From Gammaproteobacteria bacterium (GTDB lineage: Bacteria; Pseudomonadota; Gammaproteobacteria; UBA4575), in assembly GCA_965221955.1 (NCBI GenBank), contig CBDCTA010000003.1:34277-98276 (forward strand): 64,000 nt of DNA, given 5' to 3'. The notes beneath the pieces are model-generated. The model ran no database searches. It was not told the DNA's origin and worked only from the letters and a program-made list of their open reading frames with translations. Of the stretch, positions 47,026 to 53,866 are shown one piece after another. The stretch's first letter is position 1. Each line of letters begins with the position of its first letter. The position numbers were made by a program, and so were the translations under genes.

Positions 47026-47214
47026 CGGGCACCCCACGCATACCGTGGCAACCGTTGTCCTTGAACCAAAGGTTCAAGTGGGAGCACCGAAAAATGAATT
47101 AGGCTTTCCGCAGAACGGATATGCACATCAACATCTAAACAGCATTGCCCCCGGCATAAAAAAATAGGCTCAAGGGATATACCAGGAAGCACACCTGTAC
47201 CGCAGTGGTACCCG
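47026..47214 (-). ncRNA. ssrS: 6S RNA
   Basis: Downstream of zapA; complementary ends; CCCTTGAGCC, GTGCATATCCG..CGGAAAGCC and CTTGAACC..GGTTCAAGG elements. Confidence 0.9.
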
Positions 47215-49898: not shown

Positions 49899-51113
49899 AT
49901 GTCGAATCAATTTGATATTGCAGTCGTTGGAGGCGGTTTAGTCGGCAGTAACCTTGCCATTGCCTTAGCGCATGCCTCGAATTACCAAATCGCACTCATC
50001 GATTCTCAGCCGTTAGCTGAAATAAATTTTAATGCTCATCAGCACGATGGTAGAAGTATTGCATTAGCTTTGTCATCTAAAAAGATGATGGATGCTTTAG
50101 GATTTTGGGAAATATTGCAAGAACATGCCACAGCAATTAAAAATATTCACATCTCAGATCAAGGCCGGTTTGGCGCAACACGTTTAGACAGCAAGCGTTA
50201 TGAAGTTGAAAGCTTTGGTTATTTAGTTCCTGTAGATTTCTTAATCCATACATTAAACAACCAGGTAGATGCATTAGAAAATGTAACTCGGCTACAACCT
50301 TATAAAGTATCCTCAATCGAAAATCGTAATGACCATGTGGTGCTCAACAAAGATTCCGAGGATGCTGTAGAAGCAAATTTGCTCATCGCAGCAGATGGCA
50401 CAAACTCGTTTATACGTAAAGCGCTGGGTATTGATGTAGAAGAAAAACAATATCAGCAGTCTGCCATTGTCGGCAGCGTGGAATGCGAGCAAAACCATCA
50501 TCACACTGCGTATGAGCGTTTTACTAAGGATGGGCCATTGGCATTGTTACCTAAGCAAGGTAATTGCTGTGGCTTCATCTGGATGAATCCCACGGATGCT
50601 GCAGAAATAAATTTAGCACTAGACGATCAAGCTTTTAAGGACAAACTTCAATCTGCTTTTGGTTTCCGTCTTGGGCATTTCAAAAGCATTAGCAAACGTT
50701 TTGCTTATCCGCTTGCACTATTGATGAGTCAACAACGTGTGCAGCAACGTGTGGTGTTGATTGGCAACGCTGCGCAAACCTTGCATCCTATAGCAGGACA
50801 GGGTCTGAATCTTGCCTTGCGTGATATCGCAGAGTTAGTTGAGCTTTTAGTGGAGAACGATCTTAATAATGTAGACGTGCAGTTAAAACATTATGCAGAA
50901 AAACGCCAACCCGATATTGAAAAAACCATTCGCTTTACGGACCGTTTAAATTTCTTGTTTAATGCAGATTATCCTGTGCTCGCACAGTCACGTGGTTTGG
51001 GTCTTGCTATGTTAGGTGCCATTCCAATTTTAGAAGAACGTATTGTGAAGCAAAATTTAGGTGCAATAGGATCTAACGCGAGCTTGCTTAGAGGGGAAAC
51101 AGTCAACTCATGA
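49899..51113 (+). CDS. ubiH: 2-octaprenyl-6-methoxyphenol hydroxylase
   Basis: GGGLVG, AYERFT..GPLALLP, GNAAQTLHPIAGQGLNL; follows pepP. Confidence 0.9.
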   Translation: MSNQFDIAVVGGGLVGSNLAIALAHASNYQIALIDSQPLAEINFNAHQHDGRSIALALSSKKMMDALGFWEILQEHATAIKNIHISDQGRFGATRLDSKRYEVESFGYLVPVDFLIHTLNNQVDALENVTRLQPYKVSSIENRNDHVVLNKDSEDAVEANLLIAADGTNSFIRKALGIDVEEKQYQQSAIVGSVECEQNHHHTAYERFTKDGPLALLPKQGNCCGFIWMNPTDAAEINLALDDQAFKDKLQSAFGFRLGHFKSISKRFAYPLALLMSQQRVQQRVVLIGNAAQTLHPIAGQGLNLALRDIAELVELLVENDLNNVDVQLKHYAEKRQPDIEKTIRFTDRLNFLFNADYPVLAQSRGLGLAMLGAIPILEERIVKQNLGAIGSNASLLRGETVNS

Positions 51114-52315
51114 CATCTGAGGATTTTTCTGTTGACGTAGTTATTACAGGCGCTGGCATGGTAGGTTTAACCCTTGCCAACTTATTAAGTCTGCAAGGTA
51201 AATCAATTGCTGTGATAGATTGCAATGAAATTGCTAGATTTAAAGATAAAAATACTTATGAAGCACGTGTTACAGCGGTTAGTCCAGGTTCACAAGCCAT
51301 TTTTGAACATGTGCATGCATGGGAGCGCATGCAGGCAAAGCGTGTTTCGCCCTTTACCGATATGCATGTGTGGGATGAGGCAGGTCATTCCAATATTCAC
51401 TTTAATTCTGATGAGCTTCAACGAAATCATCTTGGTCACATTGTCGAAAACTTAGTGATTCAAACTAGTTTGTTTGAGAGTTTGCAACAACAAACTAAGA
51501 TTGAATGGCTGCTTGCAGAACACATTAGAAAAGTTGTGGTACATCAAGACTATGCAGAAGTAACATTAGATAGCGGTAAGAAAATTCAAGCAAAGCTTGT
51601 GGTAGGGGCAGATGGTGGTCGTTCAACGATTCGCAATCTTGCGGGCATTGCGTATCAAGAAAAAAGCTATCAACAAATGGGTTTAGTTGCCTTAGTTGAA
51701 ACTGAACAACCCCATCAACAAACTGCCTGGCAACGTTTTTTAAGTACGGGCCCATTGGCGCTACTACCATTAGATAATGGCCAATGTTCAATTGTGTGGT
51801 CAGTAAGTGAAGACTATGCTGATGAGTTAATGAAATTGAATGAACATGAATTTGCAGATGCACTTACTCAAGCGAGCGACAAGCAATTAGGTAGCATCAC
51901 GTTAAAATCAAAAGTTGCAGCGTTTCCACTTACCTCAGGTCGGGCCGATACCATAATCCAACCTCGAATTGCTTTAGTAGGAGATGCAGCGCATGCACTG
52001 CACCCACTTGCTGGGCAAGGTGCGAACTTAGGGTTTACTGATGCTGCAGTATTAGCAGATGTGTTAGAGAACACAGAGCGTGATATTGGTAGTGTAAAAG
52101 TATTGCGTAAATACGAGCGTGCACGAGTAGGGGAAGCGCAAATTATGCAAAAAGCCATGGATGGTTTTGTTGCAGCTTTTGGTTCAAGAAATCAAGCAGT
52201 AGTGACAGCAAGAAATGCAGCGTTACGAACTGCAGATTCAATGCATTTCATAAAGAAAATTTTTATGAAGCATGCGATGGGGTTGAGTAAGGACCGTCCA
52301 GAGTTTGCGCGTTAA
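51110..52315 (+). CDS. ubiI: UbiI/VisC-type FAD hydroxylase
   Basis: GAGMVG, GADG, GDAAHALHPLAGQGANLG; follows ubiH. Confidence 0.8.
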   Translation: MTSEDFSVDVVITGAGMVGLTLANLLSLQGKSIAVIDCNEIARFKDKNTYEARVTAVSPGSQAIFEHVHAWERMQAKRVSPFTDMHVWDEAGHSNIHFNSDELQRNHLGHIVENLVIQTSLFESLQQQTKIEWLLAEHIRKVVVHQDYAEVTLDSGKKIQAKLVVGADGGRSTIRNLAGIAYQEKSYQQMGLVALVETEQPHQQTAWQRFLSTGPLALLPLDNGQCSIVWSVSEDYADELMKLNEHEFADALTQASDKQLGSITLKSKVAAFPLTSGRADTIIQPRIALVGDAAHALHPLAGQGANLGFTDAAVLADVLENTERDIGSVKVLRKYERARVGEAQIMQKAMDGFVAAFGSRNQAVVTARNAALRTADSMHFIKKIFMKHAMGLSKDRPEFAR

Positions 52316-52316
52316 A

Positions 52317-52344
52317 ATGACTGCTAACGACCTAAAGTGGGCAT
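52317..52344 (+). repeat. 28-bp imperfect palindrome, copy 1 (left cassette boundary)
   Basis: ATGACTGCTAACGACCTAAAGTGGGCAT. Confidence 0.85.
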
Positions 52345-52357
52345 ATTTAAATCACTT

Positions 52358-52681
52358 ATGAAAATAACACTACTTATAATTCTGCTTAGTATATCTGGCG
52401 TTACTTTGTCGGATGTGAATCTATGGAAACCAGACCCCAAGTTTCAATTAGAATACGCGGACTATATGCAAACCATGAGCTGGATATCTGGTGTTTCTTA
52501 CACATTAACTAAACTTCAAACTGAAAAAATATTTTTATGCGATGGGCCTGACTCAATCGGATCAAATGAAATAATTGATTATTTGAATGCTGAATATTCA
52601 GGCGAACAAATCAGTTCGGAACAAGCTATTGAGGCAATTTTTAGAAAATTAAATTCACTATATCCATGTCATGATAAATGA
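52358..52681 (+). CDS. Small exported protein (Rap1a/Tai immunity-like pattern); cassette cargo
   Basis: Signal peptide, WISGV..FLC..LYPC two-Cys pattern; stop codon lies inside repeat copy 2. Confidence 0.65.
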   Translation: MKITLLIILLSISGVTLSDVNLWKPDPKFQLEYADYMQTMSWISGVSYTLTKLQTEKIFLCDGPDSIGSNEIIDYLNAEYSGEQISSEQAIEAIFRKLNSLYPCHDK

Positions 52682-52705
52682 CCGCTAACGACCCAAAGCG
52701 GACAT
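52678..52705 (+). repeat. 28-bp imperfect palindrome, copy 2 (right cassette boundary)
   Basis: ATGACCGCTAACGACCCAAAGCGGACAT; 24/28 identical to copy 1. Confidence 0.85.
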
Positions 52706-52739
52706 TTTCAGGTAACCTAAGTCTAATCGTTGCATCTCA

Positions 52740-52872
52740 CTAGAAACTGCGTCCTGCGTTTCTAGCACTTCCGTCATCCATGACGGTCGTCCCTGATGGA
52801 CATCTTATTCGCGCGGTCGCTCTCGACTTCCTGTCTTTCGCGACACTTGTGCATCCATGCACATCGTCCCTG
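52740..52872. repeat. Modular REP/MITE-like hairpin element
   Basis: Two modules, each [hairpin]-CACTT-[stem-TCCA-stem]-TCGTCCCTG. Confidence 0.75.
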
Positions 52873-52998
52873 CGCTCACTGAATTGATTGAAATCAAGTA
52901 TGGGACACTTTAAAGCCAGTATTATTGAACCATAGATATGTGAGTGATCTAAGAATAAATAGACAATTTTTTTAAATAAATCTAATGGAGTTGATAAT

Positions 52999-53428: not shown

Positions 53429-53866
53429 TTAATTTTTAGGCTTAAATTCTTTTTCTAATTCTTTCGAGCATTTCATAAAATGCTCTTTAGAATTTGCAAC
53501 CATGTTTTGTAATTCTTCTTTGGTTATCTCACCGGCTTCAAAGTCTACTCGCATGAGTTCGTTGACATCTGCGGTGGCTTGTTGCAAGCCTTTGCCTTCA
53601 ACTACGGGTTTAATTGTTGCTATTTGGTATTTTTCTGGGTAGTAATGAAGTATTTCCACTTGGCAGTCCGCCATACCTTTGACGAGAAAATCGAGAGCAG
53701 CGTCAGGGTCTTCTTGTTTTTCAAGTGCAGTGGCGATTTGTTTTTCTAAAATAGGCTTTACTTGTTCAACATATGCTCGTTTATATTTTTCTAGATCTAA
53801 TTCTTCAGCAACACTCGTGTTTGATAAAGCAATCAGTATTACTGTAACTACAGCTGGAATTTTCAT
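53429..53866 (-). CDS. Exported hypothetical protein
   Basis: Signal peptide, helical, two Cys. Confidence 0.65.
   Translation of the reverse strand: MKIPAVVTVILIALSNTSVAEELDLEKYKRAYVEQVKPILEKQIATALEKQEDPDAALDFLVKGMADCQVEILHYYPEKYQIATIKPVVEGKGLQQATADVNELMRVDFEAGEITKEELQNMVANSKEHFMKCSKELEKEFKPKN

Follow-up and report, generated by a model that had tools for sequence, protein, structure and literature searches.

Paired 28-bp palindromes around an orphan gene behind ubiI: a candidate unit of a widespread gene-cassette system without an integron enzyme

We analyzed a 64-kb stretch of DNA (the window, G000:C3:34277-98276) from a gammaproteobacterial genome (G000; 2.69 Mb in 29 contigs, ~38% G+C, with a reported assembly contamination of 4.3%), in which two 28-bp palindromic sites, A1 and A2, enclose a single small gene directly behind a ubiI/visC-like gene. 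A preliminary description of the locus had interpreted the two palindromes and the enclosed gene as a cassette integrated by site-specific recombination, with no integron involved. The same sites occur throughout the genome and its relatives, bracketing single genes as well as arrays of genes. We consider, with a probability of about one half, that the two palindromes mark one unit of a widespread cassette system that lacks an integron enzyme and operates by non-integron site-specific recombination. The comparison covered 14 relatives of the same genus (among them G010 and G014), a relative from another genus (G019), and further genomes of the family, among which G001, G010, G014, G019, and G022 are complete and rich in sites.

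A degenerate 28-mer describing the sites has exactly two matches in the window, both on the forward strand (Table 1), and none is expected from 100 dinucleotide-preserving shuffles of the window. The two copies start 361 nt apart and are identical at 24 of the 28 positions, differing at positions 6, 17, 22, and 25. A1 begins one base downstream of the TAA stop codon of the ubiI-like gene (52313-52315), the most likely start codon of the enclosed cargo gene (ATG at 52358) lies only 13 nt past A1, and its TGA stop codon (52679-52681) is located inside A2. For both copies, folding predicts the previously proposed stem of nine pairs, mismatched at position 4, around a 10-nt loop, including the two G:T pairs of A1. 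However, only the A2 fold is stable (-5.8 kcal/mol, z -4.2, equalled by 0 of 200 shuffles), whereas the fold of A1 is weak (-1.1 kcal/mol, z 0.0) and its bottom strand is unfolded. Contigs from three other runs read C at position 52338, which restores a G-C pair in A1, and two of the three read A at position 52339. Because other populations of the species carry C at 52338, A1 is a decayed copy and not a special variant.

The cargo protein belongs to no Pfam family that we could find, and a protein search returned five sequences at E <= 0.001, including that of the window itself. The ortholog in G010 shares 77% amino acid identity, and the nucleotide differences concentrate at the third codon position (41, compared with 14 and 11 at the other two positions), indicating that the cargo ORF is a real gene. 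The originally described arrangement, two 24/28-identical palindromes around one ORF behind ubiI, is thus confirmed in its exact positions and in its coding content.

The sites extend far beyond this locus. Allowing up to two substitutions in the 28-mer, we counted 162 copies in G000, compared with none for the reversed pattern used as a control. Sites within two mismatches of a loop consensus were typed as A or B, yielding 77 A and 73 B sites. Neighboring sites form A..B pairs in 53 of 86 cases, in 50 of which the longest ORF lies on the A-to-B strand. In these units, the longest ORF begins 30 nt past A and stops 9 nt short of B (both medians), and it covers 90% of a median cargo of 482 nt. 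As many as 74 of the 86 cargo ORFs have no paralog among the cargo. Isolated units carry a complete site at each end, with A on the left and B on the right, and an inverted, hairpin-rich element with a partial-site end, which we call the T element, borders arrays and single units on either side. At all 11 leaders, the array follows housekeeping genes and shares their strand, in agreement with the suggestion that cassettes are placed behind host operons. The motif therefore brackets both single ORFs and arrays, as had been anticipated. The gene-plus-site cassette proposed earlier also stands, but the usual unit is A-gene-B with two site types and not the A-gene-A form of the window. As a side observation, every site begins with ATG on both strands, which gives rise, in Lysobacter soli and at many G000 sites, to spurious ORF calls that start with or include a site-encoded peptide, e.g., MSAFDPKRT.

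Within arrays, consecutive units are connected by B-spacer-A joints (n = 30), of which 28 measure either 72/73 or 82/83 nt from start to start, i.e., two length classes one helical turn apart. The spacer contains a conserved GTTGGAAT block, which forms a promoter-like -35/-10 pair together with an A/T-rich hexamer ending at position 2 of the A site. In a fixed-phase test, the pair was found before 34 of the 77 A sites and before none of the 73 B sites, while 27 A sites, including both in the window, are without the promoter block. The absence of room for a promoter, noted earlier, consequently holds for the window cassette, which would depend on read-through from ubiI, but does not hold for cassettes elsewhere. 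The pair reads TTGGAA, 16-18 nt, and a TAAAAT-like hexamer (e.g., C5:5099-5153) and would set the transcription start inside the A site. A generic promoter scan of one array returned a single joint promoter and a total no higher than in shuffled sequences, and a match to an integration host factor site was present in the spacer of only three of the 30 joints.

These properties bring to mind expression elements resembling repetitive extragenic palindromes (REPs) and bacterial interspersed mosaic elements (BIMEs), which constitute the main rival explanation and one that we regard as possible, if doubtful. The spacer before A would then be a promoter or operator block and B a 3' hairpin, and the 28-bp sites and 100-110-bp joints would serve as portable homology, by which genes are shuffled through homologous or short-homology recombination and natural transformation with no dedicated enzyme. 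The sites are indeed short, extragenic, high-copy palindromes of two types alternating with linkers of discrete lengths, and the Y and Z REPs of E. coli likewise alternate with fixed-length linkers in BIMEs. The fixed phase of the promoter-like pair relative to A but never to B, as well as the helical-turn difference between the spacer classes, are in line with this explanation, whereas the 27 A sites lacking the block are not.

To follow the movement of units, we compared the 3' end of ubiI, which is conserved at 70-79% DNA identity in all 14 same-genus genomes, in 13 same-genus species. Neither a 28-bp site nor a leader element is found there in G001, G003, and G004; G011 has no site beside ubiI and keeps spacer-like sequence, and the contig of G013 stops 98 nt past the ubiI stop codon. 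G006 carries one decayed site followed at once by a conserved downstream gene, and G002 carries an A site, a gene for 103 residues, and a B site in front of the same downstream gene. One to three other cassettes reside behind ubiI in G008, G009, G010, and G012, and no two species have the same cargo at this locus. A-type sites or leaders are located directly 3' of ubiI in nine of the 13 relatives examined, and the decayed site of G006 has the same CCT and AAAGTG variants as A1, so A1 is probably the resident site of the ubiI locus. Both an empty site and alternative cargo, which had been named as signs of a cassette, are accordingly present among the relatives. The window cargo has itself changed its location. 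Together with A2, which is kept along with it, the gene matches G010:C1:427785-428146 at 81% DNA identity, where it is the first gene behind a tRNA-Arg gene, with more cassettes after it. In G000, the corresponding tRNA-Arg locus contains neither the cargo gene nor any site. This relocation is one sign that the units move.

The assembly of G000 also holds two pairs of strain-variant contigs, C14/C23 and C10/C29:124000-138671, which are ~99% identical and differ only in cassette content. The flanks of C14 and C23 are 99.0-99.3% identical, and one internal cassette is common to both contigs. C14 contains an extra cassette between two sites where C23 carries a single hybrid site, and a 1.5-kb stretch of C14 corresponds to 11 kb in C23. 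All four breakpoints of this pair fall inside 28-bp sites. C10 and C29, with flanks of 99.65% and 98.7% identity, contain four and five unrelated cassettes, respectively, between the first A and the last B. Altogether, five of the six breakpoints in the strain pairs lie in or beside sites.

The distribution of the sites is wide. Within the genus, 13 of the 14 other genomes contain the motif, which also occurs in five more genera of the family, with up to 187 strand matches in the complete genome of G019. An exact-pattern scan of reference genomes also matched Lysobacter, Noviluteimonas, Sphingomicrobium, Sphingomonas, Caulobacter, and Phenylobacterium, in addition to Nitrospinaceae, Burkholderiales, and others. 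Lysobacter soli, with 65% G+C, carries the same A and B sites, the same A-gene-B grammar, and a conserved 31-nt spacer. Caulobacter and Sphingomicrobium contain arrays of one site type in one orientation, i.e., the A-gene-A form found in the window, and the alphaproteobacterial joints consist of a single 28-bp site. From 38% to 65% G+C, the cargo follows the base composition of the host but the sequence of the sites is conserved, so the sites appear to be under sequence-specific selection. For REP- or BIME-like elements, such retention of site sequence and A/B grammar between classes would not be expected, and the single site per joint in the alphaproteobacterial arrays also speaks against them.

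Related sites that lack annotation also occur on plasmids (67 records) and in E. coli (148 of 5,426 complete genomes). In a plasmid of Pantoea vagans (NZ_CP028350.1, 495-500 kb), most annotated genes of a ~4-kb region, namely a fosA-like gene, LysE, an HTH gene, namA, and DUF2268, are set apart from one another by pairs of unannotated sites with a spacing of 39-40 nt. One related site in the chromosome of E. coli ATCC 25922 (3486642-3486669) lies at the 3' end of a DUF4209 gene in a Qin-like prophage. The composite joint of G000 had no blastn match among plasmids and phages. Among viral contigs in IMG/VR, 25 contain a site; in one that we examined, the site is in host DNA beside an inovirus integrated at dif. 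In another observation on these contigs, L219 and nine similar ones carry an inovirus without an integrase (Zot-like ATPase, Rep_trans), located at a dif-like sequence (L219:6529), and L219 has two 28-bp sites 1,513 bp apart, located 2-3.6 kb from the dif-like sequence in the apparent host DNA of a high-GC proteobacterium.

The architecture of the sites offers a hint of how they might be recognized. Variable positions reside in the outer arms, on the left in A and on the right in B, and the inner arms are invariant. G:T-compatible changes in the stem show no strand preference. The lack of a strand-consistent G:T pattern fits better with a protein reading double-stranded arms than with an RNA or a single-strand hairpin. 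Rfam had no match at the sites. The 28 bp can be divided as 11-6-11, although 12-2-12 is equally possible, and the A type of Alphaproteobacteria has perfect 11-bp inverted arms. The sites had been described as bearing no resemblance to dif or Xer sites, which is correct for the sequence; the geometry may be similar, as an 11-6-11 division is that of Xer-type sites. Because inverted arms around an asymmetric center in conserved versions make up the layout of a simple core site, we favor site-specific recombination.

According to this explanation, each site would be a 28-bp core-type recombination site composed of two inverted arms of 9-11 bp and an asymmetric center, which exists in at least two conserved versions, A and B. 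Simple recombination core sites require partners to share the center, and the center of the present sites may be the overlap region that sets compatibility groups. An enzyme acting in trans would perform the exchange by conservative site-specific recombination, so that single small genes with their sites are inserted behind, and co-oriented with, housekeeping genes, either singly or in arrays. In the window, a circular gene-plus-site unit would have recombined with the resident A1 (A x A), resulting in A1 followed by the orphan gene for a presumably secreted protein and A2. The cargo, without a promoter of its own, would be read through from the ubiH-ubiI operon. XerC and XerD, the only recombinases present in every carrier examined, could be considered the default candidates for the enzyme.

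The preliminary description had looked to a recombinase or HUH enzyme encoded elsewhere and co-occurring with the sites, and we found none among the integron integrase, Y1, IS110, serine recombinase, and tyrosine recombinase genes that we checked. The Y1 transposases have a bearing on the idea of non-autonomous single-strand transposons of the IS200/IS605 or REPIN kind, in which the hairpins at the left and right ends would be A and B, respectively, and would be moved in trans by a Y1 HUH enzyme resembling the REP-associated tyrosine transposases (RAYTs). A and B have common stems but different loops, and both point the same way within a unit, one at each end, which would suit such transposons. 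Co-orientation of A sites with replication, as judged from dif, could be read the same way (68 of 80 sites in G019 and 29 of 35 in G010, counts uncorrected for gene-strand bias), although the sites within arrays are not independent. However, PF01797 is absent from G000, from 12 of the 13 motif-bearing genomes of the genus (including the complete G010 and G014), and from G019. Where Y1 genes are present, in G001, G015, G018, and G022, the surrounding ~1.5 kb is free of sites, and the variable positions of the sites track the arms and not one strand. We therefore regard this explanation as improbable.

Even less probable, in our view quite remote, are relics of chromosomal integrons, i.e., attC clusters that lost their integrase, with the B-spacer-A joint in the role of attC. 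Single, mostly promoterless, co-oriented, and unrelated small ORFs, joints of 100-110 bp that form imperfect inverted repeats, and the similarity, judged by eye, of B to the reverse-complemented A (20 of 28 positions) are reminiscent of such arrays, and a true IntI occurs in five of 41 family genomes. The best matches to the IntI model (TIGR02249) in G000 are XerD (83 bits, with a cut-off of 265) and an XerC-like gene, and IntI is equally absent from the complete, site-rich genomes and from all five distant carriers. G013 has IntI and no site, and there was no site near the three IntI loci that we fetched. Moreover, isolated units have complete A and B sites at their left and right ends, respectively, which a crossover in the last box of attC cannot yield. 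Joints lack the RYYYAAC ... GTTRRRY end boxes of attC and consist of a single 28-bp site in Alphaproteobacteria. The earlier conclusions that no integron is involved and that these short sites are not attC are thereby supported.

Other recombinases gave no better candidate. IS110 genes (PF01548) are present in two of the 14 genus genomes, G004 and the site-less G013. Small serine recombinases show no co-occurrence with the sites, and most carriers lack their genes, for which reason the idea of a resolvase-type half-site was rejected. We also rejected the 540-residue serine recombinase of G000 as a prophage gene, located in a prophage-like block (C26:85304-90596) with genes for DUF2924, terminase, DUF5681, and a ParB-methylase. 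Two decayed sites (C26:82358 and 82968) lie ~2.3-3 kb from this block. A 431-residue integrase on C29 was discarded because it has only generic relatives, in three of the five distant carriers. By Pfam, the large ORFs beside the Caulobacter arrays include no recombinase. The only ORF family recurring near sites in 51 high-GC loci from distant taxa is a sensor-kinase family, at five loci.

Several of our observations weigh against site-specific recombination as proposed here. No recombinase or HUH enzyme is tied to the sites in the carriers examined, and none recurs near them in the 51 high-GC loci. The presence of XerC and XerD is uninformative since both are universal, and the arms of A and B are unlike either arm of dif, which we located in G000 (C4:59807, reverse strand) as well as in G019 and G010. 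Since an isolated A-gene-B unit contains only one A and one B, exchange of the A x A or B x B type alone can neither excise nor create it. One exchange point between C14 and C23 lies in the right arm of the site (positions 19-25) instead of the center, and at another boundary of the same pair the site is inverted between the strains. Wholesale replacement of arrays could also result from homologous recombination. Finally, neither a circle junction nor an empty allele was seen in the runs of this species, for which assembled contigs only were searched. The contigs break at A2, and two joints that skip the cargo have less than 30 nt on one side and probably derive from other copies.

The negative enzyme searches and the exchange point outside the center count in favor of the REP- or BIME-like explanation, and REPs of the CGTC type, which are abundant in Alphaproteobacteria, are reported to have no dedicated transposase (Di Nocera et al., 2013, PMC3733652). 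The same survey defines the REP superfamilies by a GTAG or CGTC tag and loops of ~4-5 nt (PMC3733652), neither of which applies here: the flanks of 150 oriented sites have no GTAG or CGTC tag outside the stem, and the loop measures 10 nt, or 6 nt if the site is divided as 11-6-11. We also count the size of the sites against this explanation, as 28 bp is barely long enough for RecA-dependent exchange. In summary, the cassette idea of the preliminary description is largely borne out, and either site-specific or general recombination at the repeats may account for the exchange.

The features around the cassette are compiled in Table 1.

Table 1. Features of the ubiI locus in the window (coordinates refer to positions in the 64-kb stretch).
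Feature	Coordinates	Strand	Basis
ubiI/visC-like gene (putative label), 401 residues, host anchor gene	51110..52315	+	ORF list
Site A1, decayed A type, 9-nt arms, center AACGACCTAA	52317..52344	+	motif match, weak fold
Cargo gene, 107-residue orphan with N-terminal hydrophobic (signal-like) segment and two cysteines	52358..52681	+	ORF list
Site A2, consensus A type, provides the TGA of the cargo gene	52678..52705	+	motif match, stable fold
Hairpin-rich T element in trailer orientation	52706..52879	+	blastn to ~25 other places in G000; flank alignments
Possible decayed half-site after CTCAC	52880..52901	+	by-eye comparison with other trailers, ~14/20 positions alike; weak
EF-hand protein gene, 106 residues	52999..53319	+	Pfam EF-hand
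Conserved 145-residue gene, right border of the variable interval behind ubiI	53429..53866	-	homologous DNA in relatives

The T element that follows A2 consists of short hairpins with variable stems and ATCCAT or ATCCCT loops and ends with CTCAC. Its best blastn match, G000:C27:11912-12031, lies 3' of a terminal B site, and the position of the possible half-site is occupied in other T elements by the right part of a B site. As observed more generally, T elements (e.g., C27:11940-12031, C28:38060-38146, and C3:17889-17968) are strings of hairpins with covarying stems, and the loops on the strand leading into arrays read ATGGAT, AGGGAT, or AAGGAG, i.e., GGA motifs as in CsrA/RsmA-binding RNA loops. 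Rfam lists RsmY at 52725-52871 on the reverse strand with 15.5 bits and an E value of 0.27, far under the gathering score. The EF-hand gene has DNA matches of 80% in G010 and 79% in G007, where it is a cassette: in G010, it lies behind groEL and is flanked by two B sites, and in G007, a decayed A site precedes it. DNA homologous to the 145-residue gene is found 0.6 to 4 kb from ubiI in G002, G011, and G014, and its homolog lies directly 3' of the G002 cassette and of the single site of G006. Further upstream, the window contains a 6S RNA gene (ssrS, 47027-47211, reverse strand, 66.2 bits in Rfam) in front of the pepP-ubiH-ubiI block, as in enterobacteria.

A wider reading, which we put forward only tentatively, is that of a second general gene-cassette system of Proteobacteria, independent of an integrase, with incompatible A and B core sites, cassette exchange, a trans-acting host enzyme, and a pool extending across classes. 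The enzyme would be XerC/XerD acting at a non-dif site or a member of an unrecognized family. Shared centers would define a pool reaching from marine Gammaproteobacteria to Lysobacter, Caulobacter, sphingomonads, and enterobacterial plasmids, and insertion, excision, and exchange behind housekeeping operons would resemble a natural form of recombinase-mediated cassette exchange. To our knowledge, no established system other than integrons stockpiles and reshuffles single promoterless genes. If correct, the proposed system would change the view of how accessory small genes spread, the cargo including genes beside sites on Pantoea and Klebsiella plasmids, and would account for many of the "orphan" genes behind housekeeping operons. 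It would also provide very compact natural recombination sites for engineering. Even with REP-like elements, a strict A-gene-B grammar across classes would still call for an explanation. The system can be tested directly, as carriers such as Lysobacter soli KCTC 22011 and Caulobacter sp. 17J80-11 are available in culture.

Among known systems, integron cassettes are similar in having one small, usually promoterless, unrelated gene per unit, co-oriented arrays, and a conserved joint of imperfect inverted repeats; the content of arrays varies among close strains, and cassettes also occur outside the main arrays. Arrays with attC sites only are known as clusters of attC sites lacking integron integrases (CALINs). 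Unlike integrons, the present system has no IntI, and its 28-bp sites are simple palindromes conserved in sequence, compared with structure-defined attC sites of 57-141 bp. It has two site types, a full site at each end of isolated units, and many insertion points behind housekeeping genes in place of one attI, and about half of the units carry their own promoter-like block. REPs and BIMEs share the short, high-copy extragenic palindromes by the 3' ends of genes, the two unit types, linkers of fixed length classes, and stems starting with AT. The differences from the REP/REPIN-RAYT systems are the missing link to a RAYT, the strict polarity of A and B around genes, and the conservation of the site sequence across classes.

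The plasmid dif (pdif) modules of Acinetobacter are gene modules with 28-bp sites in alternating versions, and they are comparable to the present units also in the possible 11-6-11 geometry and in having no recombinase gene inside the unit. The host XerC and XerD are presumed to act on pdif modules in trans. In contrast to pdif sites, with their distinct XerC and XerD arms, the sites described here are unrelated to dif in sequence and have two arms alike, and they form chromosomal arrays of single small genes with two sites and a spacer per joint. The arrays of dRS3 repeats and Neisseria intergenic mosaic elements (NIMEs), together with the "minimal mobile elements" of Neisseria, offer a further parallel, since short palindromes with a variable center separate variable segments and loci with conserved flanks contain different whole genes from strain to strain. 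The NIME segments are non-coding units of 50-150 bp, unlike the genes here. In addition, dRS3 serves an IS110-type enzyme of filamentous prophages, but 12 of the 14 genus genomes in our comparison have no IS110 gene. The survey of CGTC REPs equates dRS3 with CGTC-1 REPs (PMC3733652). Our literature search returned no relevant paper with the site strings and no description by concept, although the figures and supplements of that survey might list a related consensus, and the RepRanger article (PMC12306157) contains no matching term. The A/B grammar, the allele series behind ubiI, the relocation of the cargo, the two comparisons of strain variants, the cross-class grammar, and the negative enzyme tests are new in this analysis.

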